From: Psammoneis japonica
Lineage: Eukaryota
Reading direction: 5' to 3'
Length of the DNA stretch: 64,000 nt
Assembly: GCA_008632985.1 (NCBI GenBank)
Contig: QPGO01000039.1
Span: 496,001-560,000, forward strand
The position numbers were made by a program, and so were the translations under genes. The notes under the pieces were generated by a model that was not told where the DNA came from, did not search any database, and saw only the letters and a program-made list of their open reading frames with translations. This document shows, in pieces, positions 23,230 to 64,000 of this stretch. Within the stretch, counting starts at the first letter, position 1. Each line of letters opens with the position of its first letter.

Positions 23230-23480
23230 CAGCATTGAGAGCTCATTAAATTGGCTCTGACAAGATTGAAGGGTGCAGCACAGGGTTGCGCCACTCTCAG
23301 TGTGATGGGTGTGGGTCTGTCTTGCACATGCATGACCAGCCACACAACACTTTGTTTTTGAGAGATGAGATGCCTCAGGTGCACACAAACAATGCTGCAA
23401 ACCTGTTGAAGAATGCGAGGAAGATTGTGGCAAAGGGAAAACAGACAGCAGTTGTCTCTTTTTGCTGTTTTGTGTTTCTA
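23230..23480 (+). repeat. Diverged repeat, paired with ~18340-18600; unidentified coding remnant
   Basis: Shared ttggctctga, gggtctgtct, cactttgttt and aatgctgcaaac in the same order. Confidence 0.55.
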
Positions 23481-26695: not shown

Positions 26696-29350
26696 ATGAG
26701 CCGACGAGCGGCGAGACATAGTGGAATGCCAGATGAAGATGATTGGAATCCTCCGCAATCGCTACTACACCACACGAGCAGCAAAGAAATGAGGACAACA
26801 GGAGCCAATAAGGACAACAACAGCAAACCCGGATACGACGACAATGATGCGAGTTCTTCTCTTCCTCCTCAGCGTCCCCATTATGCGAGTGGACAATGGA
26901 GAAGAGTGTCAGAAGTACCAGATGCTCCTAGTACCGGTGCTTTTCATCATCATCAGAAACAGCAGCATCAGTTTTGGAGTGAGAGAGGATACGAGAAGAG
27001 AGGAAAAGACAAGATTGACACGACTCATGCTCCTGAATTGTTTCCAATAGAGCGTCCACCTCCTCCAATGATGGCGAGGAATGAAAAGGGAGAAACGTTG
27101 GGGTCACTTAAATCCAACAAGAAAGACGTTCAGAAGCAGAATCCCCAGAAAAGTGGCGCCGGATTGCATCCTCACACGGATAACAAATTCAATACAGCAT
27201 CCGCCGCAGCAAGCACTAGTAGACCTCAGGATGAAGATATTGATGACATTCCTACAGAAGGAGTCGCTCCTCAGTTGATTGATAACAAGAAATGCGTACA
27301 GAAGCGGAATGCCCGGAAAAAAGGCGCCGGGTTGCATCCTCACACGGATAACAAATTCAATACATCATCCACCGCAGCCAGTATTAGTACACCTCAGGAT
27401 GAAGATATTGCTGCCATTTCTACAGAAGGAGTCAGTCCTCAGTTTAATGACCATGAAGATTTTGCTTCATCCAATAGAATGCAGGCTGCGGAAGGAAGCG
27501 ACCCTTCTGCGGTGCAGCAGCAAGTGTTTCCTGGGGCCTACCGGGAGGGTGGCAACTCGTCATTTCAACAAGATGAAGAATATACACTGTCTGCTCCATC
27601 GATTCAAGACATGCCACCACCACAACAAGACGAACAAGCGCCGCATGGTGATTCCCCGCCCTTACTAACCGCTCATGTGGTGAATGAGGCTGAAGCTATT
27701 GTGGTCGATTCTCAACCCATAACGGATGGCGGCAGCAGCAGCAATAGTCCCGGTGGGTGGTGGTCGTCACCACGAAACAGAATATTCTTTTTGGTCGGCA
27801 GCATTGCACTTATTGCTGTTGGTGCTGTTGTGGGTGTGGTGATGGCGCTTTCCGGCGGCAGTGATACGGCGAGTCAGGCGGCGATAACCTCTGAGCCGTC
27901 AATTGCTCCTACGCCTGAACCTACTCGTGAATCTGGACCAAAGACGGACTCTCCCACACCTCCTTCTACGCTATCCCCAACACCCGTATCGCCGACGGAC
28001 CCCTCTACAGATCCTCCAACATGGCCTCCATCTGGCTCCCCAACAGATCATCCAAGTGTTTCTCCGACAGACTCCCCAACACCTTCCCCTAGTTTGTCGC
28101 CGACAGTCTCCCCAACATCTTCTCCTACTCTTCCTCCTAAGGTGTGGAAACAGGTTGGTTCCGATATCGAAGGTCCAAACACAAATGACTTTTTGGGAAA
28201 TGCCATTGCGCTGTCGGAGGATGGCGAGCGCCTTGCCGTGGGAGCGATGTGGCACGATTTCAACGACACCATGTTACGAACCGGCATTGTTCAATTGTAT
28301 GATTTAAGAACCCTTGTGGGTCAAGACGAGGTGGAACCCTATTGGCAGCAACGTGGTCCCGACATTTATGGTGAAGCGCAAAATGCACACGCGGGTGCGT
28401 CCGTGGCGCTGGTTGGCACCACGGTGGCGGTGGGAGCGTCTGGTCACGAATATGATGGACAGGAGGATATTGGAATGTCCCGTGCATATGGCATCAGTGA
28501 TCCAGATGATGATTATGCTGCACCGTATGGATGGGAAGTATACGGATGGAATGCCTCGGATGAGCTCGGACGCTCCATTGCTCTATCCAGTGATACAAAC
28601 ATCATGGCTGTCGGTGCCCCGGGCACTTGGGACCGCCCTGGATATGCCGCGATCTACGGTTTTAACGATAGGGCATACCAGTGGGTTAGGTTGGGAGACA
28701 GAATTGAGGGTTTAAACAACGATGATTCCTTTGGATCAAGTCTATCTCTATCTCAAGATGGCTATCGAGTGGCAATTGGGGGCAGGTTTCACGATGTCGG
28801 AGATAAATACCGGGCCGGGCACGTTCAAGTGTATCAGTATGACAGAAGCGCTGAGACTTGGCTCCAACTAGGTGATGACATTGTCGGAAGAGAGACGCAT
28901 ACTTTATTTGGCGAAGATGTTTCACTAAATGCCGTTGGCAATCGCGTTGCCATTGGTGGGAGTGGAGATGGAGGTTACATCGGCGTCTACCAGTATGATC
29001 AAACATCGCAAAAATGGGAGACTCTCGGGGATGTTATCGAATCTGCAACAGGGACTGACTCGTTTGGTAGCTCAGTGTCGATGTCTGCTGCCGGTGATAT
29101 TGTCGCCGGAGGTGCCACTTCTAGTGACGACGGGGGTCCGAGGTCCGGTCACGTACGTGTCTTTGAATTCATTGCCGACAAAGGTTCGTGGGAGCAGGTA
29201 GGGCCCTCCATTTTTGGCAGCGAGAACGATAATTTCGGTGCGTCCGTGTCCTTATCGTCAAATGGCCAGCGTATAGCAGTGGGTGCACCATATTTTGACG
29301 GAGCGAACGGCCAGCGCTGCGGTCACGTACAAGTCTTTGACCTGGTATAG
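26696..29350 (+). CDS. Single-pass membrane protein with P/S/T stalk and FG-GAP (integrin-alpha-like) beta-propeller
   Basis: PGAY motif, TM IFFLVGSIALIAVGAVVGVVMAL, PT/SP repeats, and repeated FGxSVSLSxxGxRxAVGA units. Confidence 0.9.
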   Translation: MSRRAARHSGMPDEDDWNPPQSLLHHTSSKEMRTTGANKDNNSKPGYDDNDASSSLPPQRPHYASGQWRRVSEVPDAPSTGAFHHHQKQQHQFWSERGYEKRGKDKIDTTHAPELFPIERPPPPMMARNEKGETLGSLKSNKKDVQKQNPQKSGAGLHPHTDNKFNTASAAASTSRPQDEDIDDIPTEGVAPQLIDNKKCVQKRNARKKGAGLHPHTDNKFNTSSTAASISTPQDEDIAAISTEGVSPQFNDHEDFASSNRMQAAEGSDPSAVQQQVFPGAYREGGNSSFQQDEEYTLSAPSIQDMPPPQQDEQAPHGDSPPLLTAHVVNEAEAIVVDSQPITDGGSSSNSPGGWWSSPRNRIFFLVGSIALIAVGAVVGVVMALSGGSDTASQAAITSEPSIAPTPEPTRESGPKTDSPTPPSTLSPTPVSPTDPSTDPPTWPPSGSPTDHPSVSPTDSPTPSPSLSPTVSPTSSPTLPPKVWKQVGSDIEGPNTNDFLGNAIALSEDGERLAVGAMWHDFNDTMLRTGIVQLYDLRTLVGQDEVEPYWQQRGPDIYGEAQNAHAGASVALVGTTVAVGASGHEYDGQEDIGMSRAYGISDPDDDYAAPYGWEVYGWNASDELGRSIALSSDTNIMAVGAPGTWDRPGYAAIYGFNDRAYQWVRLGDRIEGLNNDDSFGSSLSLSQDGYRVAIGGRFHDVGDKYRAGHVQVYQYDRSAETWLQLGDDIVGRETHTLFGEDVSLNAVGNRVAIGGSGDGGYIGVYQYDQTSQKWETLGDVIESATGTDSFGSSVSMSAAGDIVAGGATSSDDGGPRSGHVRVFEFIADKGSWEQVGPSIFGSENDNFGASVSLSSNGQRIAVGAPYFDGANGQRCGHVQVFDLV

Positions 29351-29649: not shown

Positions 29650-31860
29650 TCTTTCATCGCCATCCCGCAGGAAACACCTGGCTTGCATGATGCATTTCAG
29701 GCGACCAATGCTCCGTTGCAATCCCACGGCTCCTTTGAGCATCTTCCAGCGTTGCACTCTCTGGTCCCGATGGATCCGTTGTCACAACTGAGACGAGGAA
29801 GACACATTTGCCACAACACACTCACCACGCAAGCGTCTGGCACCACGTGTTTGTGCACCAGATCTTCAATGATGCATGGCACAAAAAACATGACATCAGC
29901 AGGGATGACCATTGCAGTGGAAAATCGAGCACTCTGCTGGCTGGTTGTTGCACAAGCCACAAGACACCGCACCTTCTTAAGCCAGCACAGAGCTTGCAGG
30001 TTCAGGGCAACCCAGGCATGTGCTGAAGCAAAAACTCACTCTCCAGTTTCAATGTGATGGCATTGATGATGAAAAAGACTGAGCGTGGCTGCAGCTCTTC
30101 AGATGGCCCATGGCTTTGCAAACTGGCCAGTGCAGCCAAGCAAGCAATGCCAGTGTGTGGCCTCAGAAACAGGCCCAGGAGGAGTGTGCCTGCTCATGAC
30201 CATGTGAGCAAGCCCCCTCCCCCCAGCAGCAGCAACAGAAAGAAGAAAAAGGACAGGTGGCAGGTGGTGGGAGAGATTTTTCAATGGCTGCTGTGACAGC
30301 CAAGCTGATGATCTCAGCATGGCAGCTGACCAGGAACTGCACTGTCCAAACACTGTGGCTGCCTTCAGGGACTGTGACAGTGCCAGAGCACATCTTTTTT
30401 CCAACAACAAGTGTGCCACACACAACCTGCACTGTGACTGCAAAAGATTTGATGATGGAAGCTGGGGGAACACCTGCATGCATGAGGTGTTTCTGGTCCT
30501 GCCCTTTTCCACAGCTTTTGGCTCATTTGGGCTGAGATCAGACCTGCGCTGATTTGCCCATTTTGTGCCAGACCCAAAGGACCCCAACCACAAAGCCCTG
30601 GTTGCAAAGTGTTGCGCACCCATTTTTGCCTGTGAGAAGACAAGTGTGTGCCATGATGAGATGGCCTTGCCTTGGGGCCAACTCCAGCTTCATGGCTCAT
30701 GTCCACACAGTGATGTGTGCGATGAGAGTTTGCATTTCTTGCACCACCGCTGTGTCCCATGACCCCAACACTTGTGCCCTCTCAACAATGCTTGCTCATT
30801 GGAGTGACCACAGCAGTGGCCATGCCACTCCATCACATGGCTTTGACAAAGCAAGTGAATCTGCCTGGACTTGCCATGTGGACCCACAAAGAGAGACAAA
30901 CAACAACAACAACAACAACAACAAAGCCTGCTGGCCATTTGTCCTGCACAAGAGACTGTGAGCCTGCTGCTGGGGCACTCTTCCAATGTGCTGAAAGAAG
31001 AAGCTGCCAACTTGCAATGCTGCAGAAAGAGCCAACTTGCCATGGAGATTTTGTGTGAGGCCAAAGAGTGAAAATTGGCCCTGAACAAAAGGTTCCAAGT
31101 TGGGTGGCACAGACAAGCTGGCAGCCAAGAAAAGAAGTTGTCGCTGCCGCTCTTCCTGAGCAGTGGCAAGAGCAAAACAACAGAAGGTGCAGCAGGAGGG
31201 GTGCAGGACATGCTCAGTTTCAGGGCAGCTTTTTGAAAGAGGCCAAAGCAGAGAAGAGAACATTTGTGAAAGATGAGCAGCTGTGTGGCGCACAGAAAAA
31301 ACCTGGTGCCGCTGTTTTTGGCAGTGAACAATGAAGTCAGTGAGTGGACCAAGCACATCCAGTGCATTTGTGCATGATGATGATCTGCTCTTGGGGAAAC
31401 AGGAACACCAGCACACGGCGAAGCCAAGCAGCCAGCCGTGCTCTGCCACATTCACAGCAGTGCGAATCTGTGGTGGGAGACATCAACGGGCAACAACACA
31501 GTGCCAAGATCAAGAATCGCAAGCAACTGGAGGGGAACATGTGTGAAGATGTCATCACCAGTGGCTTTTTTGCTTGAACAGAGATGCAAGACTGACCAGC
31601 AGCCCAGCAGCTCTTCTGACAACAAAAGAAGATGGGGAGATCGTCAACAGCGCCGAGAGAGACTTTTTGTGACACACCTGGTGTTGTTGTCATTGCACAG
31701 GTCTAAGGCCAACAGGAGGACCCTGTCATGGCATTCATCAACTTTGATTCAGCAGTGGATCAAGGAGCGACCTGTGTGAGACATGATCACCATGCGACAA
31801 ACAGCAGCATGACCCCTTTGTGTTCAAAATGTGGGCGGTTGTGCTTCCATTGGCGCAGAA
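29650..31860 (+). mobile_element. TpA-depleted island 3, possibly a decayed piggyBac-like transposase
   Basis: Almost no TA over ~2.1 kb (survivors ttaa, ctaa). CDES-like motif at ~30715 and VWRTEKTW at ~31285 weakly resemble piggyBac motifs. (CAA)n at ~30900. Confidence 0.4.
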
Positions 31861-47661: not shown

Positions 47662-48426
47662 TTACGCCAAATGAGACCAACAAAGACGTAGACTGCCTCG
47701 CAAAACATCGAGCAGTTGTTGCTGTTGTTGTGTGTTGGCGCCATAAATGTTCTTGAACATTTAACGTGACGTCATTCCGAAAGATGAGAACCATCATAAA
47801 GCAGGATCCCGCGACAGCGAATCACAAAACACAAAACTAACTCAATGAACAACAAAAGAACAAACCTGTTGCTTTTGGACGACGAATAACAAGAATGTGA
47901 GTCATTTTCAGTCGAGGCTGCTGTGAGCTGTGAGCTACGGGAAAAAATGTCCCATCGCTGATGCCTGATGCTGGTCCTTAGAAGCTACTTGCTTCGTCAC
48001 ATTGTACAATAGATAGAAAGCATCTCGAACGTTGTGAATGTTTAGGCACACTCGTGGTTGCGTGAACCGTGCGTCTCTTTTACCAAACTGAAGAAAGCCT
48101 TCACACAACTCGCAGAAAACAGCTCCATGTACTCGTAATTGTGCACTTTTGTTTGTTCTTGTGCGTTGTTGTTATCGTCACGTGCTTCTTCATGATGTGT
48201 TGGATAGCCACCGGAGAAGAGACGTAATGGACTGTGGCGGGGTTCGGGTTTTTATTGCCACCAAATACCCTGTCGAATATACGTGTATTGATAATGCGTG
48301 TGTTGTTTTTTTATCGACCGTGGTTGTCATAACGACACTTGTAAGACAAAATACCTTTCTAAACCTCCGTGGTATTCTCTGTGGCGCTCTTTAGAGCGAA
48401 GAGCAAGAGAGAAAGCAAAGAAACTC

Positions 48427-50496
48427 ATGATGACGGGCAACTGGGAGAATTTCCGTGTACGTGTCATTGTAGGAAGTTTAATGGTGCTCCCCACGATCTC
48501 GGGGTTTGAACCAAATTGTGGGAAGCCCAATACAGATCCCTGCGAGATTGCTACTTACAATGATCTCAAGGGTGTTGAGGCCAACGGACTGGACAGAAAC
48601 TATGTGATGATCAATGATATTCAAGCCACAGACGACAATTTCAAACCTATTGGCAATGAGTATGAACCTCTCTGGTACGTTGATTCGTACCATGACTCCT
48701 CTTATTATGAGGAATACGAGGTCGAGTATACTACCTTCACTGGATCATTTGATGGTGGTGGGCATGCGATTCGTGGGTTGTCCATCTTTCAAGAGGAAGA
48801 TGGCAGCATGGGCAAGGGTTTGTTTGGTGGTCTTAGTAATGCCGATGTCCGCAATCTCATCCTAGTTGACACCAAAGTTGGTGCTTCTGACACCTCTGCC
48901 AGATTTGCCGGATCCCTTGCTGGAAGTGTTTATGGTGGCACGATCCATAATGTCACCTCAAGAAATCCACAAGTCAATGGAGATGCTGTTGCTGGTGGGC
49001 TTGTTGGAGATGTATATCAAAATTGTAAAATCTCCTGCTGCCGGGTTCTCGATGGGAAAGTAAACGGGAATCAAGCTGGTGGTCTTGCGGGGTGGATTGA
49101 CGATGTTACCATCGAGGAATGCAGCGTGCAAAACATCTCTGCGATAGAACATGAGTTTGGACCGGACAGTTGCCAAGGAGTCAGTCATCAACAATTGCTT
49201 TGTAGCTGGTGATGTTGCTGTTTTTGGTAGTTTGGAGGTGGGTGGCCTTGTCGGAGCAGCATCGAGTACGAACATATCAAACAGCTATTTTCTAGGTGAT
49301 GTTCATGCGAAAGCAAGTCAAGCGGCCGGTGGTCTCGTTGGCAATTCTTTCAGATCGTCTATTAAGAGCAGCTTTGCCACAGGTAAGGCCACAATAGAGA
49401 AGAGCTTGTATGACGATGATATTTTCATAGGTGGATTTATTGGCCATGACAGCTCCGATGACTACGAGTTGCGACTACTAGAGGGTAACTACTGCGTGAT
49501 GGACCCTGCAGTTGGCGACGAGTATGAGGCAGCCGACACCGAAGTGAAAGTCGTGGAAAGCAAGGAATACTTTCGTGATCCCACTAATCCGCCACACTCC
49601 GGCTGGGACAGCAACATTTGGGCCCAGCTACACAACAGTGCATACCCCTATCCAACCCTTCAGTGCCAATCTTCTGGTCAGAGTAACACTCCCCCAGTTG
49701 CCGTTGATTTCCCTTTGTCAGGAAAGATCAAACTGGACTCGTGCAAAAAACTTGATACCACGATCACCTTTCTGAGTCCGGAGCAAGATCAAACTACTAA
49801 CGTCAAGACTTGGGGAGTCCCCGGTGGAATGACTGCGACAAACAAACCTGGAAATGCAGCGACTGTTCGTCTCGAAATGACACCGACGGCGAATGCGCGA
49901 TACAAACTGTTCTTCAAAGCCCAAGACAGCAAGGGAGCTGTTACCAAGAAGAAGCTACTTGTCATAGTGTCTGGCTGCAAGACTGCAAAGGCACCAAGAA
50001 TGCGCTGCAAGGAACGAGATAAAAAAGCCATGTCGTCTTCAAAGTGCTATGTTTGGACTACGATTGACGACGGGTCCAAATCTTTTGACTCCAAGCCTGT
50101 TGACTTGACGCAAGTCCCTCCTCCGCCCTACGGCGTCGGTGTTACGGATGTAACACTCACAGCTACGGACAGTGAAGGCCGCACAAATACCTGTACGAGG
50201 ACTGTGACGGTTCGTCAACCTCGGCGTGGCGTCTGTCCTGTAAACAAGCCACCAGTTGTGCGCTGCAAAAATAGGGATAAAAGAGCCCGCCCTTCCCTCA
50301 TTGCAAGGTATGGACGACGATTGACTTCGATTCGTATGATCCCAACGGCGACACGTTGACGCACGTCCTGGACCCTCCGCCTCCCTATGGCATTGGAAAT
50401 AGAACAGTGACACTCACAGTCACAGATAGCAAAGGGGCATCCTCATCGTGCACAAGATGTGTCAACGTTCGACCTCCTAGCGATGGCACTTGCTAA
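48427..50496 (+). pseudogene. Secreted GLUG-motif protein with C-terminal HYR/Ig-like repeats; two frameshifts (~49160, ~50295)
   Basis: NYVMINDI, FTGSFDGGGHAIRGL, GLFG, repeated AGGLVG. Two PPPPYG..VTLT.TDS.G repeats, the second in a different frame. Confidence 0.75.
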
Positions 50497-51289
50497 ATCA
50501 CGCCCAAAAACCTGTGGAAAGCAACGGAGTCAGCGACTTTTAGGAAAGAAGAAGACGCACTCATATTTGGTTCTTCAGTTTTACCTGTGGACATTTATTT
50601 TCGCACGGTTTTTGCACTTCTTGGATGTAGTCTTGCGTGAGTTTATAGTTCCCATGGTGAACCAAGGAGGGTGTAGGACCGTTGCAACCTTGCTTTAATG
50701 ACATTAGATAAAAACCGCGTGACCTGATAGCTTTCCACATTCTTTTGCCAAAGATGTAACATGTCCTTACACGAGCTGTCTTGAAGCTCAAGAAGCATGG
50801 CAGACGCTCGATTTTCTAATGGACAAAGTTGCGCACGACGTGTACAAACAGAATATACCGGCCTCCAACCAACTTGTGAAAGAACAAGAAAAGTTGGCTG
50901 GGTCCCTCCACCGGCTCAAACAAGCCATGGAATCACTCGAAAATGCAACAGGCCTGTCCTGAATTTGTCGATGATGTGGGCAAGATCATGAGTGCCTGTG
51001 CAACAAAATTGGTTGACAACTTTGTCCAGGCATGCACAGACAGGGTTTTTATGATGTTCTGCCAAGTCACCTGAGTGACACTGGGTTGAAATCTCTTTCC
51101 AGGAAGGAAGCCACAATGTGGAAAAGCAGTGTCACTGAGTCTGAGAGAGCCATCTTGGCCATTGTGAAGCATCTGCGTGGAGTCATGCTCTGCGGCAGAC
51201 AATGCAACTGGACCAACTCTCTGTTGTCAATTTGGGAAAGAAGAGAGGACCCAGCACAAGAACAAAATGAATGTGCATGACAAACTTTT

Positions 51290-51965
51290 GGCTTTTGACA
51301 GGGTCACTGTCTGCAACCCCAGCAGGTGGCCAGCATGTCTGCTGCCATGATCTCATGGTTGATGCAGCATTGCCTCCACCTGTTGTTGATGCATGTGTTG
51401 TTTCTGTCAAAGCTTCTTCATTGGGTCAGCCCAAAAGTTGACCACAAGGTTTTGGTGGCCTCCCCACTGTTTTTGTGCCATGTGCTGCACAGCTCAAGTT
51501 CTGCATTTTTGCACTCCAAAAAGTGAGACAAGTGGATCTGATTGTTCTTTGTTGGACTCGGGTTGGATCAGTTGTGTCTCAAGAACTGCATGACACCCAC
51601 TGTGCCAGGGATCTGTTCTGTTGATGTGGGCAGCCAATGACTTTGCAACAGTCTGTGCAGCACCTCTGCAGGGTGACTGACAGCATTTCTCAGTTGTGCA
51701 TTGAGTGTGTGCTGGAAAATTCTTTTTCCTTTTTTGATGGTGCCAGTCTGGAGCACCTCTCCAAGGAAGAGCTCTCTGCAACCTTCTGGCTCAAAGGCTG
51801 GCAGGTTTTATGGGCATGGTTGTCAAGTTCTTGACTGGCTGGTTGCTTTTTGCACAAGTTGCAGCAGTGGTTGTGTGGCTGCTCTTCATTTGACTTTGAT
51901 TTCTCAACTTTGCAGCTGCCTGTGAGAGCAGCACCAATCAACAAGAATGCAAAGTGGAGGTGACA
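51290..51965 (+). repeat. Dispersed repeat, copy 1 of 3 (others ~58100-58772 and partial ~60985-61290)
   Basis: Shared ccaaaagttgaccacaaggtttt, gccagtctggagca and gcaccaatcaacaagaatg. Confidence 0.8.
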
Positions 51966-52100
51966 TGCAAAAGAGCCATGATGTACACAGCACCATGCCA
52001 AGCCAAATTGTCAGGGGCCAGACCATTCCAAATCCTGCAATGAAGTGAGGAGAGAAGCAACAACATGAGATGTGAAGTGACTGCACTCATCAACTCACCA

Positions 52101-52647
52101 CAGTTGCGGCTCATCGTGGACAGTGCAGGGGCAAGAGGTGTTGGCTCCACCACAGAACAATGCACCACAGCCAGTGTCAACTGAGTGATGCAACAAAGGA
52201 GCAGTGGATCAGCTGTCATGTGCAGGACTCTCACCACATCTGTGATGGAAGGGAACAAAACATGGCATCACAAGCAAGAAATGAAAGCAAAAGTGATGCA
52301 GTGACAAAATGAGTGACAGGGACAAGATTGTGTTGGAGAGCTGCTGCAAGAATGCATTGTTCAGACAGCACAAGTTTCTAAATGACAAGGCCCTCAACAA
52401 TCACAAATGGAAGGGTTGCAAGGACAGTGCTGTCAGAGCTCAGCATGCCCCGAGAAAAGGGAGCATGATTTTGGGACACATCAAAGGATGAGGTGCAAAG
52501 GCAAACAACGAGAAAGAAGAACAAAGTCAGTGATGAACTGAACAAGAGTTTCTTCCTAAGCAGCACAACTGATGGAGTGTGCTGAGTGTGCCGCGGACAA
52601 GGAACTGGAAAAAAGCTGACACACGTGCATGCACAGGGTGCACAGAT
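52101..52647 (+). repeat. Direct repeat X flanking the Penelope-like element (second copy 56754-57268)
   Basis: Near-identical blocks running from cagttgcggctcat to cacagat on both sides of the element. Confidence 0.9.
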
Positions 52648-52910
52648 GAGTTTTTTTGGGGTTGCACAAAACCCTTAAACCATTTTTTACACATGGTCAG
52701 CTCTTTTTAGATGTGTCTTCAAGCATCAACCCAATCCACCATTTGAAGCACCAAAGCCTGCCATTTTCTCCTCCTGAGTTTTTTGGGCCAAGACATCAAT
52801 GTGCTTTTGCACGCATCGGCATTTGTCTTCAATGGTCGCGTCCAAGCTGCAATGGCAATGACCATTAAAAATGGCTGATCTCTTGACTTTTCAGCTCACA
52901 AGAAAAACAT

Positions 52911-52971
52911 GCCAACCACACTGATGAAGGTGAAAGCAAAAGCTCACATTGTCAAGCTTTGCAGGTTTGGC
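52911..52971 (+). ncRNA. Degenerate type I hammerhead ribozyme in the 5' pLTR
   Basis: CTGATGA core, GAAA-like segment, stem III GCTC/AAGC and outer GCCAA/TTGGC. Stem I is restored when TpA is put back. Confidence 0.6.
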
Positions 52972-55900
52972 AAGACTTTGACTGAGTCTTGTCAGTGCCA
53001 AAGGTGTTTGCACACTTGAAAACCTCAACAGCAGTGTGCACCCAAACAATGATGACAAGCACCAGTGCCTCCAATCAAATCACACCAATGAGGGCCAATG
53101 AAGCTGCAGTGTCATGCACCATGACTTTCGTTGAACCCGATCCAACAACGACATGTTGACAAACTCAAACCATGCCAGGAGCTGATTGAGAAGCAGCCAG
53201 CAGGACTCAGGGGTGCACTCGAGTCCCTCACGACTCGAATGATTTTGCAATCTGCTCAGGTGCAATGGAGGGAGAAAAGAATGCAAGCCTTTGCAGGTGA
53301 ACAAGATCCTCCTTTTGTCCCACATGGCTCAAGGCTCAATGTGGAACTCAAGCACAGCAACAAGCTTCAAGATGATGCAGACACAAAAAAGCTTGTGAGC
53401 AAATTCAAAGACATTGTGGCCAATTTCCAAGAAAAAGGTGTGAAGCTGATGCACAAAATGGCAGAACGTCAACTTGAATTTGCAAAAACAGAAAGAATTT
53501 CTGCACTTGTCACTGCATGCATCGATCTCTTTGAACACCACATGTTCTGTTGCATTGCACATCAAAAAGGAGCATCAAAGCATTCACACAGGCACTTGGG
53601 AGCACTCTGTCTGCTGAAACATGCAAAGAACAAAATTGCAGACACCTTCTGTGTGACCCATCTCAGAGTCAAGCAATGTGTTGTCCCAGCTGAGATCATT
53701 TTGCAGATGCAATCAGATGTGGAGTTAACTGCTCCACCCACCAAAGACACCAACGAAACAGAGTCAAACCCACGCCACTTCACTGACAGCAAAACCAAGA
53801 TCTGTGACACATGGTCACAAGGCTTCAATGCAAGAACACTTTTGGAGAAGTCACCACACGACCACAAAATAAAATCAACCACAAAAACAAAATTGCAAGA
53901 GCCAACATGCAAGTCACCACCAGGTGGAACTCATGCAACAAGAAAGCAGCAGCTGAAGCTGCCGCTGCCACCCTGGAAAATGAGCCATCAGCGCACCGGG
54001 CGCAGCCAAACAAGCTGTCAAAGCTCTTCAAAAACACAGCAGCAGTTAAAAAGGAAGCAAAAAATCTTCGCGGGCAACCAGAAAGCCCTGCCGGCCAAAA
54101 ATGCCACTGCTGCAAAAACAGGAAATGGACCACCACAGAAAAAACAAAAAAACATCAGGAGGCAAGCCTCGCACCAGAAAACAACAGAAAAAACAAGGAA
54201 ATGGAAGAGGCAATCACAGCGCACAGTGCAAAGGTGGGGAAAAAGACTCTGGACATGCACCTGACTTCTGAACTGCTGATTGAGACCACCAACCATCAAG
54301 CCAACAGCTTTTGCAAAAGGATCTGTGGGTTCATGCCAAACCCACCAAACAAAACCCCATGTGGCAAAATGCCATTGATGTGCTTGCTTGGCAATGCTGC
54401 TGCAGTGCAATGCTTCAACTGCCCAATCAATCTGGCTTTCCACAACCTTTGCACAAACCTCCAACCCCCTCCAGGCCTCGTTGCTCTTCTTGGACTTGGC
54501 CACAAGTTTTGCATCAAATGGCCAAGACCACCATCGCACAACAAAAATGGAGCTGAATGACTTTGTTGATCAACTGGCCTTGCAGCCTCTGCCATTTCTC
54601 ATCAATTCCATGGATGCCCCATCAGAAGCCACAACCACATCCCAGGCCTGTGCATCAAGTCAATGTGGGAGCCACCAAAAACAAAAGAAGGCAACTTGGA
54701 ACTGCGTGTGCATGATGGACTTTGCCAACTGTGCTGAACAACTTTGCTGCCAAGCCACAGCAAAACAGCCTTGGCACAACTTGTTGCAACAACAGCGCCA
54801 GCTTTTTTGCTCTCTCAAAGAGGATGGCCAATTCATTGTTTGCTTGAGTGACAAAAATCTTGGACCCATCATCATCAAATGGGCCACGTGCGTCACTCGA
54901 GTCCTCCAAGACCATCTGCTCAACCAGAACAACTGCCAACGATTTTCACCTGCAAAAAAACCAACCTCCTGCAGGATGCAAAGCAACATCTTGTGGATGT
55001 GTGCAATGAAGCCAAGCCTCTCTTAAGCTCCACCAAGCAAAGTTGCTTCAAGCACAGCTTTGACCTGCACCATTGCATCCCGCAATTTTACATCACAATC
55101 AAGGTCCAAAAAATCCCTTGGAAACAAGACCAATTGTCAGTTGTGTGGGCAGTTTTAACAAAATCTTCTCAAACTGGTTGGATGAAAAGATGAAGGAGCT
55201 CTTCACCCTTTCCCACTGATGCATCTGTGATTCCCACCAAGTTCTCATGGATCTGCCAGCACTGGGAACCTTGCCTCCAGGTGCAAAGCTCTTCACCATC
55301 AATGCCATCAGCGTGCATTTGAACATTGACATGAGTCATGCCCTGGAAGTCTTCCAAGACTGGTTCAACACATGCCCAGACAAAATGCCAGCAGGCTTCT
55401 CAATGATTTTTCCCTCTCCACCTCAACTGTCATCATGACACGTGACATTGTCCAGTTTGATGATGCATGCTGGCACCAAACCTGTGGAGCTGCAATGGGC
55501 ACCAGCACAGCATGCATGTGTGCAATGCTGCACAAAGCCCTGCACGAGCGCCAAGTGCTCAAGACATGCTTTGCCACCAACCTTCAGCACCATGGCTGCT
55601 TTGTTGACAACATCCTTGGTGCATGAACAGGAGACAATGAAATGACATGGACAGAGTTCAAAAATGAAATGAACAACTCTGCCCCCCTTGTGCGGGAAAC
55701 TTCCCCACTCTCAACCTCCAACACACATTTCTGGATCTTGAAATCCACATCGGAGCTGACAACAGAATCATCACTCACACACACCAAAAGCCAATGAATC
55801 TCTTTTTGCACATCCCATCTGCCTTGGCACATGCACTGGGAGCACTGAAGAGCATTGTGCGCAGCAACCTCTGGCATTTCTGGACACAAAATTCCAATGT

Positions 55901-56639
55901 GGCAGACTGCATCACTGTTGCACAGAATTTTGTGAACCGTCCAGTCAAAAGAGGACACTGTCAAGCCACCCTGTGTGAGATCTTTGTGCAAGCCGTGCAG
56001 CACCTTGACAACCCCTCTCAACACCACCACTCCAATGCTGCTGCAAACCCAAGCTCTGCATTGTTTTTTTACAGTGAATTTCACCCACAAGGGAAACCCC
56101 ATGTCTCCATCTGACGAGTCCATGACAAAACACTGCTGCAGGGAGTGCAACACACTGGGTTTGACCACTTTGTGCTTGCCTGCTCACAACCAAAAAATTT
56201 GAGAGATGCTTCAATGCAAACTCAAATGCAGGAACCAGAAGGGAAGCATGCATCTAAATGCACAGAGCACTCAGATCCAGAGCTCTTAGTTGGTGACTCC
56301 ATCGCAACGACACACCTCCAGCAAAAAACTCAAATGGGCCACCTTCCTTGCTTTCAGCACTTCGGCTTGCACCCATTTGAGTTTTTTGGGGGTTGCACAA
56401 AACCCCAAAACCACTTTTTACATGCAGCCAGCTCTTTTTAGATGTGTTTTTGAGTGTCAACCCAATCCACCATTGGAAGCACCAAAGCCCACCATTTTCT
56501 CCTCCAGAGTTTTTGGGCCAAGACATCAATGCGTGTGCTTTGTGTGCACTGGCATTTTTCAATGGTCACATCCAAGCTGCAATGGCAACGACCATTAAAA
56601 ACAGCCAATCTCAACATTTTTGGCTCACAAGAAAAACAT

Positions 56640-56693
56640 GCCAACCACACTGATGAAGCAAAAGCTCACATTGTTGAGCTTTGCAGCTTTGGC
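56640..56693 (+). ncRNA. Degenerate hammerhead ribozyme in the 3' pLTR (stem II deleted)
   Basis: CTGATGA followed by the perfect hairpin AAAGCTC-acattgtt-GAGCTTT, flanked by GCCAA/TTGGC. Confidence 0.5.
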
Positions 56694-59600
56694 AAGACTT
56701 TGTCAGAGTCTTGTCAGTGCCAAGGGCATTTGCACACTCAAAAACCTTGGCAGCAGTTGCGGCTCATTGTGGACAGTGCAGGGGCAATGGGTGTTGGCTC
56801 CACCATGTGTCAACTGTGATGCAACAAAGGAGCAGTGGATCAGCTGTCATGTGTGGGATTCTCACCACATCTGTGATGGGGAAGAACAAGATGACATCAC
56901 AAGCAAGAAATGAAAGCAAAAGTGATGCAGTGACAAAATGAATGACAGGGACAAGATTGTGTTGGAGAGCTGCTGCAAGAATGCAGTGTTCAGACAGCAC
57001 AAGTTTCTAAATGACAAGGCCCTCAACAATCACACAATGGAAGGGTTGGAAGGACCATGCTGCCAGAGCTCAGCATGCCCCAAGAAAAGGGAGCATGATT
57101 TTGGGGCACATCAAAGGATGAGGTGCAAAGGCAAACAACAAGAAAGAAGAACAGCGTCAGTGATGAGCTGAACAAAAGTTTTTCCTGAGCAGCACAAACA
57201 AATGGAGTGTGCCATGAACAGGGAACTGGAAAAGAACTGACACACATGCATGCACAGGGCACACAGATCATGAAAAGAAGAAACCACAAGCGCACAAAAC
57301 AATGCCAAGATGCCATCTCTGGAAGACATGCCAGAGGGGCGGAACAACATGATGGCCCAAAGCTGTTTCACCATCATGCAAATCCTGCCACTCATGGTCA
57401 GAAAGACGATGTGGAAGCATTGGCTCAAGAGTTGAGACATTGCTTGAACAAGTTGGCATCTGCAAGTGACGAGGCATTTGGTCTGCCAGTGTTGGAGAAC
57501 AGCTGGAACAAGTGGGCATGCATGCACGGCAGCAAAACAAAGGAAGAGTTGAAGGAATTAAAAAGGAAAGGAGGAGGAATAGACCATGGAAACATTGATG
57601 GAGCACTCACAAAACTTGCATCAGAAATGTTCATGCAGTGACACAAAAAGAAGCCAAGTCATTGACCTGCATTTGTCAATGCAGCACACTGGCATGGATG
57701 CCCACATCAAATGTGGTGGTGGAACCCAAGCTGCAATGAACCCAAAACCTGTGTGGAAAACAAAGGAGGGGCTTGCATTGCTCCATTTGGCCCAACCTGC
57801 AAATTGCCAACCCCTCAGATGCAGGCCACACAAAGTGCCGCAGCTGTGATGATTTCCTTGTTTTCACTGTCGCAAGGTGGAAATTTGACACTCTGCTGTG
57901 GGCTCATTTTCATCATTTGCGCTGGTTGTTGTGCTGGGCATTTGCTTCTGTGCTTCTTTGTCAGAATGTGAGGTGTGGTGTGGTCTAGTCTCAGACAATG
58001 ATGGTCTCTTAGACATGTGGTGCCATGCTGCATGGTGGGAAAGCCACCTGCACACATCTCACCTGGAGCTGGAACAAGCCCAGCAGTCAGAGAAACAAGT
58101 GGGCAACTGCAACTTTGTTGAGGCCTGACAGGTGGCTGGCGCTGTTTGCAGCCATCTCAGTCCATGCAGGAGTGACTCCACTTGTTGGTGCATGAAGCTT
58201 CTTCATTGAGCCAGTCCAAAAGTTGACCACAAGGTTTTGCCCCCCCCCCCCCCCCCCCACTGTTTTTACACAGCGTGCTCTGCGGCACAAGTTCTTCTGC
58301 AGTTTTTGCACCAAAAGGTGAGACAAGCAGTGGATCTGAGATTTGCTGTTGGATTTGCTTGGATTGGGCCAGCTGGATTTCAACTGCGCAACACCCACTG
58401 TGCCAGGGACCTGTTTTGATGACAATCAACAGCCAATGACTTTGCACAACAGCAGTCTGTGCAGCACCTGGGGTGACTGACAGCACTTCTCAGCCATGCA
58501 CCATTGTGCCAGAAAATTCTTTTTCCTGCTTTGGTGGTGCCAGTCTGGAGCACCTCTTCAAGGAAGAGCTCCGCAACCTGCTGACTGAAAGTCTGCAAAG
58601 GAGGCAACCAGGTTGACAGGCATGGTTGTCAAGCTCTTGACTGGCTGGTTTCTTTTTGTGCACAAGTTGCAGCAGTGGTGAGCAGCTGTTCTTTTTTCAA
58701 CTTTGATTTCTCAACTTAGCAGCTGCCTGCAAAAGCAGCACCAATCAACAAGAATGTGAAATGGAGGTGACAAGTGTTGAGAAGTGAGCAACAAAAAACT
58801 CTGCACCTCTTGCAAAGTCAATGTGCAAGGTGGCCAAGCCAGATCTGCACAATGTGTCACTGGCCACACAGGTTGGTTCAGATGCAGCTAATTCAGTGTT
58901 TTTGTTTGTGTGTTGGTTGCTTTTGACTGGGGGAAACAATGGGGTGAAGCAAGTGGCCCAACACAACAAGGGTGCAACAACTTTGGGCCACTTGAAAACT
59001 TGAAAATTGTGGCAATCACCCTCAAGCCAGCCTGCCACACTGGTGTAAAAAAAGGGTGGTGCCTGCACATCAGAGGGGGGTTCCATGCAGGTTTTTGCAC
59101 CAATCAGTTGGGTTTCCCTTCCTCAAATGCAGGGTGACCCACATTTGACACAATGAATCTGCATTTTTTCCACGCAACCCTGCTTGATTTCCACAGTGCC
59201 TGCAGGAATCACAATCCTGCAGGATGGCAAAAACTTCAGTTGAATCTTCCTGGATTTAATTTGTGTTCTTCTGCAGAGGAAACAGCAGACAATTTTTTCT
59301 GAGTTCTTCAAGTGGACATCCCCCCACATGTTCTTGGCACAGGATGTGCCGCACAAACCACAAGCTGGTGTCCATGGGTGATGCTTTCTCTTTCTTTTTT
59401 GTTTGTGCCATTTGCTGCCTCTGTTTTTCCCATGGCAATGCCGTTGTTCAATGACAGCAAAAATTTCAACCTGCAGCTCCAACAACGTCAATGTCCCACT
59501 CAACACGCAAGTTTGTTTGTTCCCAAAATTTTGTTTTGTTCAGTTGGAAAGGGAAACGGAACTTTCTTGTTTGCAATCTTTCCCTTTTGGTGCCATTGTT

Positions 59601-62600
59601 GTTTCATTTTGTGGATGTGGAGCAACACTTCTCCACACACCCATTTGTTGTTTTCAATGCATTGTGGGTTGCTGTTTTTGTCTCCTTCTGGCAGCTCAAA
59701 GGCACACAGGGGATGCCGCCGCCACTCTCATCTGTTGAAAAAGCAGCATCAGAATGCAGTCAAGAGCAGAAAAGGGAAGTCATCATGTTGAGATCTGTCT
59801 TTGTGTTTTTGTGATTCTGCAGCGCCACTTCACGGGCGGGGCTGGTGCATTGGAGATGTCTGTCATGCTGCCAGGGTCCATCCTGTGGCCCCAGTGCTTG
59901 CAAGGGGTGCAGCCAGTTGTCCTGTGCTTTTTGACGGCTTGCCTGACATTGCTGTCAGGGTTCATCATCCCGTGCCCTCCAATTCCATGGGGGGTGCAGT
60001 GATGTCAGTGGATGCACCCTTCAACAAACATGTTGGGGTGCACCCATGCTCCTCCTCACTTTGGGGGTGCAGCCACTGGATCTCACTTTTTGGGGTTCTT
60101 GCAAGCTGGAAAGCATGCTGTCAGGGTTCATCCCATGACTCCCACCTTTGATGGGGGTGCACCACAGCTCTTCAAGGATTTGATTTTGTTTGCATGGATG
60201 ACAGTCTTGATGCATCATCCCACACTTTTGGAGATGGCATCAACAATGTCAGTGGCTTTGTTTCTGCAGACCACTTTGCCAGCTCTCCCATGGTCCATCC
60301 ATCCCACACTCCCCCTCTTTCTTGTGGATGGAACCTCTCTGTGAACCTCACCCAAGAACTTTCCCCTGCAAGAATCCCACTGAGTCCCTGCATGTCTTCA
60401 TCTTCCACCGCTGAGGCCAGGAGAAAAATGGGCGGCAATCAGGTCAGAGACAACATGGGTGGTGGATGAAACAACGACAACATTGCACAACAGTTGTTCT
60501 GAAATTGACCAAATCTCACGCAGTTGTCAGTGCACAAAAGTGGACACTGGTGCACCAGGGAAAGCCATTGTTTTCACTGGCGCAGTGCAGTCTTTTTGGC
60601 AGAGACCACCACAATGAATTCATGGTGTGATGGTGGGGCAGATGGCTTGAAAGAACAGAGTGTGCACATGCACAATGGATGTGTGACACCAACAGACAAT
60701 CAGGCAAAGTCACAAAATCTTTGGACTCTTTGGACCAATGAGAACTCACATCAGAAATTTGAACAAAAAGGGCACAATGCATGAGTGCATTGGAGTGGGC
60801 ACCAGTTGGCCCGGCACGTTCGCAGACAATCTCAGAACTGGCACTTCATTTGCAACTCAGATCTGGTCAGTTGGTTTTCAACTGGTGCATGATGCCCAGC
60901 TGTGGCTGCTGGAGACTTGCCATGTTGAAAATGTGGGCAGCTGGATGATGGCCTTGCTGTCATCCATGCACTGCCTCTGCTCCAGGGCCCTGCTCAGAAG
61001 GGGTGACTGACAGTGCTCCTTGACCACCCACCAAGGCAAAAAAATGTTTTTCCCATTTTGTTGCCAGTCTGGAGCATTTTTTTAATGAGCTCTGCACCCT
61101 GCCGGCCAAAATTGTGAGCTGGAGGGCACCAAGTTCAGCTGGTGCAACTGCTGAGCTCTTGACTGGTTGTTTCATTTTTGCACAAGTTGCCACAGTCCTG
61201 TGAGTTTTTTTTTTTTCAACTTCTTTCAATGCTTTGCAGCTGTGAAAGCAGTGCCAACAAACAAAAATGTGAAGTGGAGGCAAGCAGAGGCAAGAACATG
61301 TGGTGTCAAGAAGGAAGTGGCAAAACATTGTGTGCTTCTTGCAGAAATTGACTTGTTGCACTCAAGCAATTTTTCTGTCTTGTTGCACGACACAATGTCT
61401 GTGCAGAAGGCAGCCAAACCAGATCTGGTGCACACTGACATGTCATGCAGGGCTCATGTGTGCATCAGCATGGTGTGGTCTGACCCGGGCTCTGCACCCA
61501 CCTCCCTGCCAGGGACACAAGTGTCCAGCTGCTCCTCAAGCCCCACACAAGCATTTGCAGGTGCGCAGCCCAGCATGCACAATCAGGCAGCAGGTGACAA
61601 CAAAGAAGTGGCGCTTGTTGCACGTGTGCTGAGCGCTGCGCAAGCAGGAGGAAGGGAGAGCATGTGCATCAGAAGATGCTGCATCTTGCATGCAAACATG
61701 AAGTGTTGGCCAGTTGCACGGGGACTGCTGCTGGGCCAAATGTTGCTCCAAGAGCTTGTGAGCAAAGTGCAGCCAAACAAGTGTGTGTGGCTGCTGCCAC
61801 TCAATTTGCGCTGCTTGAGACACCCCATCTGACTGGATGATTGCGTCCCATCCCCACTTCTTGCTTTGCATCAACTTTGTACAAAAATGCCACAGGTTTG
61901 CCAACGCTGCTGAGAAGCTCCTCTCTTTTTCTTCTCAAACATGTGAAAAGTTTTTCAACATGTGGCTGTTTTACTTTCCACCACCTTGGCTTCTTCCTCG
62001 ACTCCATCATCAACCTCATGCAATTTGCATGCCAAATGAGATCCACAAAAAGTGCAATCAACAAAAGAGAGTCGAGTGGCAGCTTTCTCGCAAAACAACG
62101 AGCAGTTGCTGTCGTTCTGTTGTTGGCGCCCTTGCCACAAATGTTCTTGAACATTTAACGTGATGTCATGTTCGAAACAATGAAGACATCAAAAAACAAT
62201 GAGAACCGAGGACAGAGAGATCAGTCTCACCGCACGCAGACCGCAGCGAATCATCGCAAGACACAATGAAAAACAAAAGAACTGAACTGTTGCTGTGAAC
62301 GAAAAAACAAGAATGTGAGTCATTGCTCAGTCGAGGCTGCTGTGATCCACGGAAAAAAAGTCCCATTGCTGATGCCAGTCGTCACTTTTAGAAGGTTGTG
62401 AATGTTTGCGCAGGGCCCTGAGATTGTGGTTGCGTGAACGACGCGTCTCTTTGCCAAAATAAAGAGTGCCTTCACAAAACTCGCTGAAAGCAGCTCAATG
62501 CAATTGGGCCCTTTTGTGTGTTCTTTTTCGTTGTTGTCATCGTCACATGCTCCTTTGTGCGTTCGATCCACCGGAGAGGTGACAATGTGATGGACGGCAG

Positions 62601-62788
62601 GGGTTCGGGTTCTTTTTGCCCCCAAACACCCTGTCAAATGACTGCATTGATTTGGCGTTTTGTTGTTCTTTTGTCGATCGCAGTTGTCATGACGACACTC
62701 ACAAGACAAAGCGCCTTTCTAAACTTCCGTTGCATTCTGTGTGGGGTGCCCTTTAAAGCGAGGAGCAAGAGAGAAAGCAAAAGAACTC

Positions 62789-63912
62789 ATGGTGACGGGC
62801 AACAGGGAGAATTTCCGTGTGCGCACCATCACAGGGAGCTCAATGGTGCTCCCCACGATCTCGGGTTTTTTGCCAAATTGTGGAAAGCCTGGTGCAGATG
62901 CCTGCAAGATTGCTGCTTACAATGATCTCAAGGGTGTTGAGGCCAATGGACTGGACAGAAACCATGTGATGGTCAACGACATTCAAGCCGCTGACGACAA
63001 TTTCAAGCCCACAGGCAGCAGTGGTGACACCTGCAGTTGTGAGGAATGTGACATGCCGTTCACTGGATCGTTTGATGGTGGCGGACATGCCATTCGCGGT
63101 TTGTCCACATTTCTGGGGGAAGATCACGATTGTGACAGCACCGGCTCGGGTTTGTTTGGTGGTGTCGCTGGTGACGCCGACATCCGCAATCTCATCCTCA
63201 ATGACACCAAAGTTGAACATTGTGGCCACTGTCCAAACCATGCCGGATCACTTGCTGGATGTGTGGATGGTGGCACGATCCATAATGTCGCTGCAAGAAA
63301 TTCACAAGTCGAAGGGGATGTCTGTGCTGGTGGGCTTGTTGGATGGGCAGATGGGGGCAATTTCTCCTGCTGCCAGGTTCTTGGTGGGAAAGCATGTGGG
63401 GATGCAGCTGGTGGTCTTGCGGGATGGATTAAAAATGTTGCCATCAAAGAATGCAGTGTGCAAAACATCTCTCTGAAAGATGGGTGTGAACCGTGGTGTC
63501 ACAGGTCTTTTGGCGGTTTGGTTGGCCGAGCCGACTTCTCAGTCATCAACAATTGCTTTGTGGCTGGTGATGTCACTGTTTTGAGCAATTTGCCTGTGGG
63601 TGGCCTTGTTGGGGAAGCATGGGCAACGAACATGTCAAAGAGCCATTTTCCAGGTGATGTGAAAGGAGGTCACACCGCTGGTGGTCTCGTTGGCATGACT
63701 TACAAATCGTCGATTAAGAGCAGCTTTGCCACAGGTGAGGCCACAACAGAGAAGAGCTTGTGTGACGATGATGTTTTCACAGGTGGATTTGTTGGTCGTG
63801 ACAGCTCCGATGACTGCGAGTTGCGACTAGAGGGCAACCACTGCGTGATGGACCCTGCAGTTGGGGGCGAGCATGAGGCAGCCGACACCGAAGTAAAGTC
63901 GTGGAAAGCAAG
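62789..63912 (+). pseudogene. TpA-hypermutated, truncated paralog of the GLUG gene at 48427
   Basis: Colinear with ~48427-49565. The upstream ~0.8 kb (61950-62790 vs 47600-48430) is also homologous. Confidence 0.92.
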
Positions 63913-64000
63913 TGCAGTGTGCCTCGCTGCTGGACAACACGGCGAGACCGTGTGTGAGCCTCTTGCACGTGGCAACGCAGCATTGTTAACACGTGCCTGG

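Follow-up and report, generated by a model that had tools for sequence, protein, structure and literature searches.

A natural, heritable mutator that turns A:T into G:C and is aimed at one DNA dinucleotide is very rare. The closest described system is that of the chlorarachniophyte Bigelowiella natans, first described in 2026 (Mettrop et al., bioRxiv 10.64898/2026.01.13.699255). According to the accessible part of that preprint, 231 of the 302 nuclear point mutations found in 15 mutation-accumulation lines lay in two integrated viral regions, and 230 of these 231 were A>G or T>C, every one at TpA. The mutation rate in those regions was ~6e-7 per site per generation, or ~1000-fold over background, and was reached in some lines only. 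The same text reports 124 clusters of TpA-poor, CpA+TpG-rich 1-kb windows in the B. natans genome, together with 324 coding sequences that have a TpA frequency of 0.0018 and are enriched in reverse transcriptase (RT) and DDE domains; its authors suggest that an adenine deaminase resembling ADAT2 acts on the DNA. In its accessible part, the preprint makes no mention of diatoms, CpG, or TTAA. Here, we describe a locus in the diatom Psammoneis japonica, a 64-kb stretch of contig QPGO01000039.1 (assembly GCA_008632985.1, positions 496,001 to 560,000 of the forward strand; hereafter, the window, in whose own coordinates all positions are given). There, one of two copies of a GLUG-repeat gene has lost most of its TpA dinucleotides, mainly to CpA and TpG. 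A literature search for TpA loss or hypermutation in diatoms found no report, the B. natans preprint being the only relevant description it returned, and the locus is the second case of its kind, in a different major lineage.

Self-blastn of the window identified a single long direct duplication, in which positions 47697 to 49564 (copy A) and 62087 to 63912 (copy B) share 73.6% identity over 1961 columns. Both copies lie on the forward strand and carry the same segment, the GLUG-repeat gene plus ~700 bp upstream. Copy A was delimited with blastn, MAFFT, Pfam Glug matches, and translations, and copy B by the MAFFT alignment to A and by a Pfam Glug match (E = 2.6e-14) from scans of the open reading frames (ORFs). 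We tabulated dinucleotides at 1394 reliably aligned positions of the pair. Only 7 of the 50 TA sites of copy A are conserved in copy B; 43 are lost, with 18 reading CA and 16 reading TG, so that the two outcomes are balanced. The other 15 dinucleotides, when pooled, are conserved at 1010 of 1344 sites, with values of 63 to 83% each (TA versus the rest, Fisher P = 9e-19). Of 230 sites with CA or TG in A, only 2 show the reverse change, to TA in B (34 versus 2, binomial P = 2e-8).

An earlier note on this DNA had aligned by hand a small part of the duplication, positions 63703 to 63912 on the forward strand against 49352 to 49564, and had claimed that most TA sites were converted while nearly all CpG was kept. 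Realignment with MAFFT, with all sites listed, returned exactly the same TA counts: 14 sites in copy A, 10 converted, 2 kept, 1 deleted, and 1 changed by transversion. The conversions comprise five TA>TG (A positions 49384, 49409, 49420, 49438, and 49463) and five TA>CA (49395, 49428, 49486, 49490, and 49523). The sites kept are 49363 (TTAA) and 49479 (CTAG), the deleted site is 49476, and the transversion is at 49360. The CpG part of the claim held as well, as 10 of the 11 CpGs of copy A are CpG in copy B and the remaining one, at 49516, was lost by transversion.

The context dependence extends over the full segment. Among the 222 differences read from A to B, there are 49 A>G, 42 T>C, 27 G>A, and 18 C>T substitutions. 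A>G changes affect 19 of 51 adenines in TpA, compared to 13/117 in ApA, 6/93 in CpA, and 11/103 in GpA. Likewise, T>C changes affect 19 of 50 thymines in TpA, compared to 4/79 in TpC, 13/143 in TpG, and 6/117 in TpT. The question the earlier note had left to such a tabulation, whether TA sites are substituted more than other A/T contexts, is thus answered in the affirmative, the other contexts changing at 5 to 11%.

Conversions fell on coding and noncoding DNA alike. When filtered per base, which gives 35 changes compared to the 34 sites of the dinucleotide tally, they number 10, 8, and 7 at codon positions 1, 2, and 3, with another 10 in the ~700 bp of upstream homology. Most of the coding conversions are nonsynonymous: eight change Tyr to His or Cys, and others change Ile to Thr, Met, or Val, Val to Ala, and Leu to Ser or Pro. 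Tyrosine makes up 0.5% of the copy B product; the halves of copy A have 4.3% and 3.0%, and six ordinary window genes have 2.2 to 5.0%. Despite this, the copy B ORF (62741 to 64000, 420 codons) is open and leaves the window at its end, while the other five frames over it contain 6 to 24 stops each. An open frame fits a process that is unable to make stop codons, since TA>TG/CA changes can only destroy TAA and TAG. The frame of copy A, the copy called unmutated in the earlier note, is not intact: it is split into two ORFs (48298 to 49212 and 49151 to 50359) by a 26-nt shortfall relative to B. At that point (A 49145 to 49180, B 63477 to 63540), one GGLVG unit is gone and the frame is shifted; contigs from a public DNA run, X2, agree with copy A there with 0 differences. 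Copy A may be a pseudogene, or the 26 nt may be an assembly indel.

Copy B shows no comparable loss of CpG. Changes from CG to TG or CA number 14 of 62 when read from A to B and 11 of 58 when read from B to A (P = 0.66), and the observed-to-expected ratio (o/e) of CG in copy B is 0.72, with no excess CpG loss relative to A. The earlier note had described TpA loss as separable from CpG deamination and faster than it. Separability is supported here and again by the domain edges described below. The claim of greater speed stands as a count in copy B (34 of 50 TA sites versus 14 of 62 CG sites), but no ratio of the two active rates can be derived from B, because B has no sign of methylation-driven CpG decay.

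The depletion is not confined to the duplicated gene. Over the window as a whole, TA has an o/e of 0.39 and CA/TG of 1.40/1.43, values that average two states. Ordinary DNA (36.0 kb) has o/e values of 0.61 for TA, 0.97 for CG, and 1.15/1.16 for CA/TG. The other state occupies five domains, in which TA is nearly missing (o/e, 0.01 to 0.13). Three of them are dual cores poor in both TA and CpG, at 18050 to 26450, 29850 to 31550, and 50950 to 61900 (21.1 kb), with o/e values of 0.04 for TA, 0.19 for CG, and 1.76/1.91 for CA/TG; some 2-kb stretches of these cores contain one TA. The core at 50950 to 61900 (TA o/e, 0.02 to 0.07; CpG, 0.12 to 0.26; CA/TG raised) contains rearranged internal repeats, in that at 18050 to 26450, the relic of a retroelement lies together with a tandem array of 9/18-bp units (24542 to 25793), and the small one at 29850 to 31550 lies between an FG-GAP gene and an amino-acid transporter gene. 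Two further domains are depleted of TA only (TA o/e, 0.13; CG o/e, 0.72). One spans positions 1 to 2950 (TA, 0.12 to 0.16; CG, ~0.7) and has inside it an ORF with a TSP3 repeat (990 to 2072, reverse strand; 0.6% Tyr). The other spans 61900 to 64000 (TA, ~0.11 to 0.13; CG, ~0.7), contains copy B, and extends past the window end. GC content is 0.46 to 0.50 in every compartment, a level that is unchanged because the effects of TA>TG/CA and CG>TG/CA cancel.

The domains have sharp edges, resolved to 100 to 500 bp, that adjoin the ends of ordinary genes. In 500-bp bins, the number of TA sites drops from 18 to 25 to 0 to 2 within one bin at ~3.0, 18.0, 26.5, 29.7, 31.8, and 50.9 kb; seen as spacing, TA occurs every 10 to 50 bp and then not at all. 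At four of the five inner edges, the TA-free zone outreaches the CpG-poor zone by 100 to 400 bp (for example, TA resumes from 26657 versus CG from 26481, and TA is found up to 29645 versus CG up to 29846), while the two coincide at 18.0 kb. Over copy B, the TA-free state reaches at least 2.1 kb past the CpG-poor core. Because TpA loss extends past the zone of CpG loss, the two processes are distinct. The loss of TpA in this locus is directional, context specific, regional, and two stranded; it took place at the level of DNA and is separate from CpG decay.

Since the pair alone cannot polarize its own changes, we relied on outside lines of evidence to decide which copy changed. We considered 120 listed GLUG homologs out of 380 with E ≤ 0.001, which are bacterial by source names and at most 35% identical. 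In two aromatic columns that are conserved among GLUG proteins, copy A has Tyr and copy B has His, and the homologs read Y31/F28/H5 and Y73/H14/F7/W6. These readings hold even when the homologs are aligned to copy B itself; the remaining Tyr differences between A and B sit in unconserved columns and are uninformative for polarity. Composition points the same way. Copy A has a TA o/e of ~0.6 to 0.7, which is a normal level and equals that of ordinary window genes, and copy B has a value (0.11) equal to that of the adjacent nonhomologous depleted DNA. Further evidence comes from five repeat pairs inside depleted blocks. Of the 114 adjacent double differences in these pairs, 47 set CA against TG, and no other class exceeds 9. 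An excess of this kind would arise if a YR site (TA or CG) present before duplication had later been resolved separately in the two copies, and CA opposite TG between same-orientation repeats implies that both strands were mutated after copying. The de novo TpA>TpG/CpA mutations of B. natans are another line of support for loss of TA in copy B. On the GLUG columns, the compartments, the repeat pairs, and the RT relic described next, "B lost TA" is much the better reading, in agreement with the direction assumed in the earlier note. Among the listed matches, the relatives of copy B were only bacterial GLUG proteins of at most 35% identity, and no nucleotide-level outgroup was found. Both host-type ORFs carried by the domains (GLUG and TSP3) have bacterial nearest relatives in the protein library, at most 35% identical; matches to the TSP3 ORF cover the short TSP3 repeat only, 7 to 20% of the query, and are useless for polarizing.

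The RT relic (19840 to 21339, reverse strand) was recognized with phmmer as a single frame with TGA stops. A search against 1.84 billion protein representatives gave 386 matches with E ≤ 1e-3, the best at 1e-30. When aligned with the best 150 of these 386 homologs, the relic has lost Tyr in all six columns where Tyr is the majority residue; four now encode His (CAY) and two encode Cys (TGY), and the affected columns include those of the GYYH, KYEY, and YxDD motifs. Most other conserved residues are kept (L, 12/19; K, 6/8; F, 3/3; H, 2/2). Among the same best 150 homologs, 10 have no Tyr at all (P0256, P0263, P0291, P0315, P0321, P0346, P0350, P0357, P0380, and P0384) and 12 have less than 1% Tyr; the conserved Tyr columns of these proteins read His or Cys, which shows that other public records contain copies of this element family from which TA has been erased. 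At 79 metagenomic loci with relatives of the element, TA o/e is 0.60 to 1.18, in a sample that is biased to intact copies (one search pattern contains Gly-Tyr) and uninformative on TA-free copies elsewhere. Six of the metagenomic relatives (L076, L022, L043, L029, L078, and L035) have strong CpG depletion (o/e, 0.06 to 0.29) with normal TA (0.62 to 0.88), a combination that is the classical footprint of methylation with no sign of the TpA process, presumably in other hosts. An in-frame TGA of the relic falls where homologs have Arg (position 103 to 104), consistent with CGA>TGA.

The TA sites that survive in depleted DNA (n = 100 in 26.1 kb) differ in their flanking bases from those of ordinary DNA (n = 1541). 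TTAA accounts for 28 of the 100 survivors compared to 52 of 1541 ordinary sites (P = 5e-16), followed by CTAA/TTAG (24 versus 125). Other contexts have nearly vanished, namely, ATAT (0 in depleted versus 109 in ordinary DNA), ATAC/GTAT (1 versus 233), and ATAG/CTAT (3 versus 183). The tetranucleotide values are approximately the product of two per-strand factors. They fit a target 5'-T-A-N in which N is T > C~G >> A or, for a thymine-directed agent, just as well N-T-A in which N is A > G~C >> T. The pair, judged by eye, shows the same tendency, as 2 of 3 TTAA sites of copy A but 5 of 47 other TA sites are kept in copy B. CpG survival in the dual cores also varies with the flanks, with ratios to ordinary DNA of 0.068 for TCGA, 0.46 for CCGC, and 0.56 for GCGC, a pattern consistent with a C>T change that, on each strand, favors its 5' neighbor in the order T > A~C >> G. 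In the dual cores, TC/GA is slightly low (0.90/0.88 versus 1.12/1.13) and TT/AA is slightly high.

Compared with B. natans, the locus has the same changes (TpA>TpG/CpA only, on both strands), the same restriction to discrete regions, and the same bias towards GC, against the usual direction. It also resembles the long-term footprint in that genome, which consists of TpA-poor, CpA+TpG-rich clusters; the affected coding sequences there are RT enriched, and one core here contains an RT relic. In contrast, P. japonica is a stramenopile and B. natans is a rhizarian, and we observed a footprint where real-time mutations were observed in B. natans. The 2- to 11-kb domains are near saturated (o/e, 0.01 to 0.07), unlike the nucleocytoplasmic large DNA virus region of B. 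natans (Rho, 0.45). CpG-poor cores, a host-type gene paralog among the targets, and a rule that makes TTAA refractory are visible here and set the locus apart from that system as described in the accessible text.

Fungal repeat-induced point mutation (RIP) is likewise a hypermutation by transitions at specific dinucleotides that acts regionally on repeated or selfish DNA, and in ascomycetes it can spill into neighboring and duplicated genes. RIP changes C to T at CpA/TpG, which makes TpA, lowers GC content, hits both duplicates, and creates stop codons. At this locus, however, TpA is destroyed, GC content is 0.46 to 0.50 in and outside the domains, only copy B was hit, and no stop codons can be created. 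Deamination of 5-methylcytosine (5mC) in methylated transposons, which is known in diatoms, resembles what we see in the cores, where CG o/e is 0.08 to 0.26 with a matching excess of TG/CA. It accounts for the CpG half of the pattern alone and is unable to remove TpA, and copy B lost TpA but not CpG. Among diatoms, the genome of Phaeodactylum tricornutum is partly methylated, as cited in the accessible part of a mutation-accumulation study of that species, which itself reports an ordinary GC>AT bias (PMC6604790).

We consider it highly probable that copy B is a diverged GLUG paralog lying in a sharply bounded domain under regional, DNA-level, two-strand TpA>TpG/CpA hypermutation. Such a process would turn A:T into G:C on both strands, changing TA to TG or CA, and would hit coding and noncoding DNA alike with no regard to codon position. 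A TA with A as its next base would be spared, which would leave the palindrome TTAA intact. The process would make no stop codons, destroying TAA and TAG instead, and would replace Tyr with His or Cys. In the transposon-like cores of the domains, CpG has also decayed to TG/CA, presumably by 5mC deamination. The TpA process extends beyond the CpG process by 100 to 400 bp at most edges and, over copy B, by at least 2 kb. The domains may represent silenced chromatin around transposon relics, to which an enzyme would be recruited that damages DNA, either as a by-product or as an instrument of genome defense. Copy B and the TSP3 ORF would then have been caught because they lie within reach of depleted domains.

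As for the enzyme, our leading guess, and only a guess, would be a TadA/ADAT2-type deaminase that converts adenine to hypoxanthine. The natural tRNA target of ADAT2/TadA, A34, follows U33. According to the accessible part of one report, amphioxus BjADAT2 deaminates both A and C in DNA and prefers cytosine in the context 5'-TCG (PMC10354150), while DNA activity of Trypanosoma ADAT2 is cited in the B. natans preprint (bioRxiv 10.64898/2026.01.13.699255). The TCG preference has a parallel in the dual cores, where TCGA is the most depleted CpG context, although this is an analogy and not a test. It is conceivable, if doubtful in our judgment, that diatoms and chlorarachniophytes, and perhaps a wider part of the stramenopile-alveolate-rhizarian group (SAR), share a chromatin-targeted DNA deaminase defense that erases TpA near-completely from silenced DNA. 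Such a defense would spread about one nucleosome (100 to 400 bp) past the 5mC core and sometimes over whole neighboring genes, and it would disable genes without stop codons. Its active site would be 5'-T directed and might explain the TCG bias of the CpG loss too, in which case one enzyme would write both halves of "no TA, no CG."

Several points weigh against our interpretation. The evidence consists of an accumulated footprint. The polarity of copy B depends on two conserved protein columns together with compositional and neighborhood arguments. The accessible text on B. natans contains no flanking-base preference or CpG co-depletion for comparison. The adenine preference of BjADAT2 on DNA, as given in the accessible part of the report, is GAA and not TA (PMC10354150), which counts against the deaminase guess. 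Finally, the public DNA run used as a check on the sequence, X1, may come from the source sample of the assembly, in which case it would be a partly independent check on base-calling artifacts.

The alternative that survives best keeps the same regional TpA process and changes its chemistry, which we regard as unlikely. Thymine could be modified at TpA (as 5-hydroxymethyluracil [5hmU]-like bases made by TET/JBP enzymes) and mispair with G, or T:G glycosylase or mismatch-repair activity could be biased in silenced chromatin and fix T>C. The data are strand symmetric (18 CA and 16 TG), so A>G and T>C cannot be told apart and either route suits them just as well as deamination does, and the context rule can equally be read as [A > G~C >> T]-T-A, the preference of a thymine-directed enzyme. 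There are also relevant examples: 5hmU of dinoflagellates reportedly favors TpA and TpC, and very-short-patch repair of Escherichia coli depletes CTAG. Against this, neither enzyme class is evidenced in the window, and any bias of repair would have to act only inside domains with sharp boundaries.

It is very improbable that the changes arose in RNA, by ADAR-like A>I editing at U-A followed by reverse transcription and insertion, which would make copy B and the retroelements edited retrocopies. ADARs favor a 5' U. That preference is also stated in the accessible part of the B. natans preprint (bioRxiv 10.64898/2026.01.13.699255), and ADAR hyperediting of repeat-derived double-stranded RNA shares with our locus A>G change under a 5' U preference. 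One depleted block does contain a retroelement, and part of the 52- to 57.5-kb region is strand skewed (CA 731 versus TG 517; AT skew, +0.1 to +0.27). But ADARs act at the RNA level, where a heritable change needs retro-copying, and copy B and the repeat pairs indicate hits on both strands of DNA. The earlier note had argued against RNA editing on the grounds that the duplication includes upstream noncoding DNA and that both strands are hit, and this is supported for copy B. The A/B homology takes in ~700 bp upstream of the start codon, with 10 conversions in this noncoding DNA, and the outcomes are balanced between strands at 18 CA to 16 TG. The depletion crosses the ends of the duplication and stops at gene edges rather than element edges, and the 47 cases of CA opposite TG between same-orientation repeats require two-strand hits after copying.

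Slightly less credible still is a base-calling artifact, in which modified bases of heterochromatin (5mCpG plus a TpA modification) would be miscalled and the true DNA would retain TA and CG. The near-total depletion (one TA in 2 kb) and the coincidence of the edges with presumably modified, silenced DNA would suit such an error. Public DNA run X1, however, contains 81% of sampled words of 54 to 64 kb, and its contigs (word depth, ~55) reproduce the depleted blocks, covering 50.9 to 62.0 kb in pieces of 0.8 to 2.0 kb with 3 to 16 differing letters each. Run X2 covered 47.0 to 50.97 kb only and run X3 covered nothing, gaps that are no evidence either way. Miscalls at palindromic sites would also disagree between read strands, leaving many TA and CG in the consensus; 12 of the best 150 RT homologs in the public protein library have less than 1% Tyr; and the TTAA and GCGC exceptions are sequence specific. 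Of the 236 differences between the window and X1, 40 were listed, and among these, 4 of 10 A>G/T>C differences fall at TA sites of the window (47936, 49062, 49684, and 51984) where X1 has CA or TG, which may represent allelic conversion of TpA.

We give even less credence to the reverse polarity, in which RIP-like C>T changes at CpA/TpG would have made TA in copy A and copy B would keep an ancestral TA-poor state. The pair by itself is unpolarized, and CA/TG versus TA is also the dinucleotide pair of RIP. Yet the TA o/e of copy A equals that of the single-copy housekeeping genes of the window (RRP4 and JmjC), the near-absence of TA in copy B is common to adjacent nonhomologous DNA, and homologs have Tyr or Phe at the columns that read Tyr in A and His in B. 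Moreover, the RT relic lost six of six conserved Tyr residues, and the TA o/e of 0.60 to 1.18 in the 79 relatives of the RT element contradicts a TA-poor ancestor. RIP readily creates TAA and TAG, but both ORFs of copy A are free of internal stops and are split by an indel. Selection in place of mutation, whether through UpA avoidance in transcripts or a shift of codon usage in copy B, can be dismissed as scarcely credible, for although TpA is mildly underrepresented throughout the window (o/e of 0.61 in normal regions), as in most genomes, conversions are equally frequent at all three codon positions and upstream, most coding conversions alter the amino acid (including the eight Tyr>His/Cys changes), and the loss is identical in noncoding, degraded transposon DNA.

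With hypermutation of TpA as the preferred reading, a saturated footprint in a diatom would show that the process is not peculiar to one species. The locus adds a natural experiment, with one paralog inside a domain and one outside, that sets the TpA process apart from methylation-driven loss of CpG. It also adds co-location with CpG decay and a testable rule, with TAT as the best target and TTAA refractory. There are practical consequences, too. Removal of TAA and TAG leads to long false ORFs on both strands and to Tyr-free "proteins" in gene catalogs, and dinucleotide-based binning could misread depleted domains as foreign DNA. An enzyme of such specificity would interest base-editing research.

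The depleted blocks contain little recognizable coding sequence. In the 50.9- to 62.1-kb core, a six-frame scan with stops as X gave no Pfam match. A six-frame Pfam scan of 17.5 to 26.5 kb matched RT_RNaseH_2 weakly (E = 0.01), collagen repeats weakly on the tandem array (E = 0.001 to 0.004), and the FYVE finger of a neighboring gene; ORF-wise Pfam scans of the cores found nothing further. In depleted blocks (e.g., 18000 to 26000 and 53000 to 55000), TAA and TAG are almost absent and frames end at TGA only, and the overlapping ORFs of 120 to 400 amino acids on both strands are composition artifacts, not genes. The tandem array at 24542 to 25793 consists of ~139 copies of the 9-bp unit GCCAAACTC (or of an 18-bp unit), 75 to 77% matched; several of its frames on either strand are free of stops, which yields spurious "PNLPNS"-type ORFs of 200 to 400 amino acids.

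The core at 50950 to 61900 contains several internal repeats. Between 51323 to 53035 and 56378 to 58772, blastn found three direct repeat pairs (74 to 87%) in rearranged order, and a further pair joins 58470 to 58767 with 61000 to 61280. The stretch from 52000 to 57500 is skewed between strands, with 731 CA versus 517 TG on the forward strand, an AT skew of up to +0.27, and a GC skew of down to -0.17. This may reflect more A>G and C>T on the minus strand (e.g., a transcription-linked bias) or the original composition of the element.

The window is eukaryotic and has ORFs of a single exon that encode an RRP4 exosome subunit, a JmjC/cupin protein, a PQ-loop protein, an amino-acid transporter, an FGE-sulfatase-type enzyme, and an FG-GAP protein. 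The best named relatives of RRP4 are from pennate diatoms (Nitzschia, Fistulifera, Seminavis, and a Bacillariaceae metagenome-assembled genome) at 54 to 60% identity, and its best unnamed match is at 67%. These matches mark the DNA as diatom-like, and the protein library contains no close relative. The FG-GAP ORF (26474 to 29350), which lies in ordinary DNA, contains a 168-bp unit twice, 87% matched, at 27116 to 27444.

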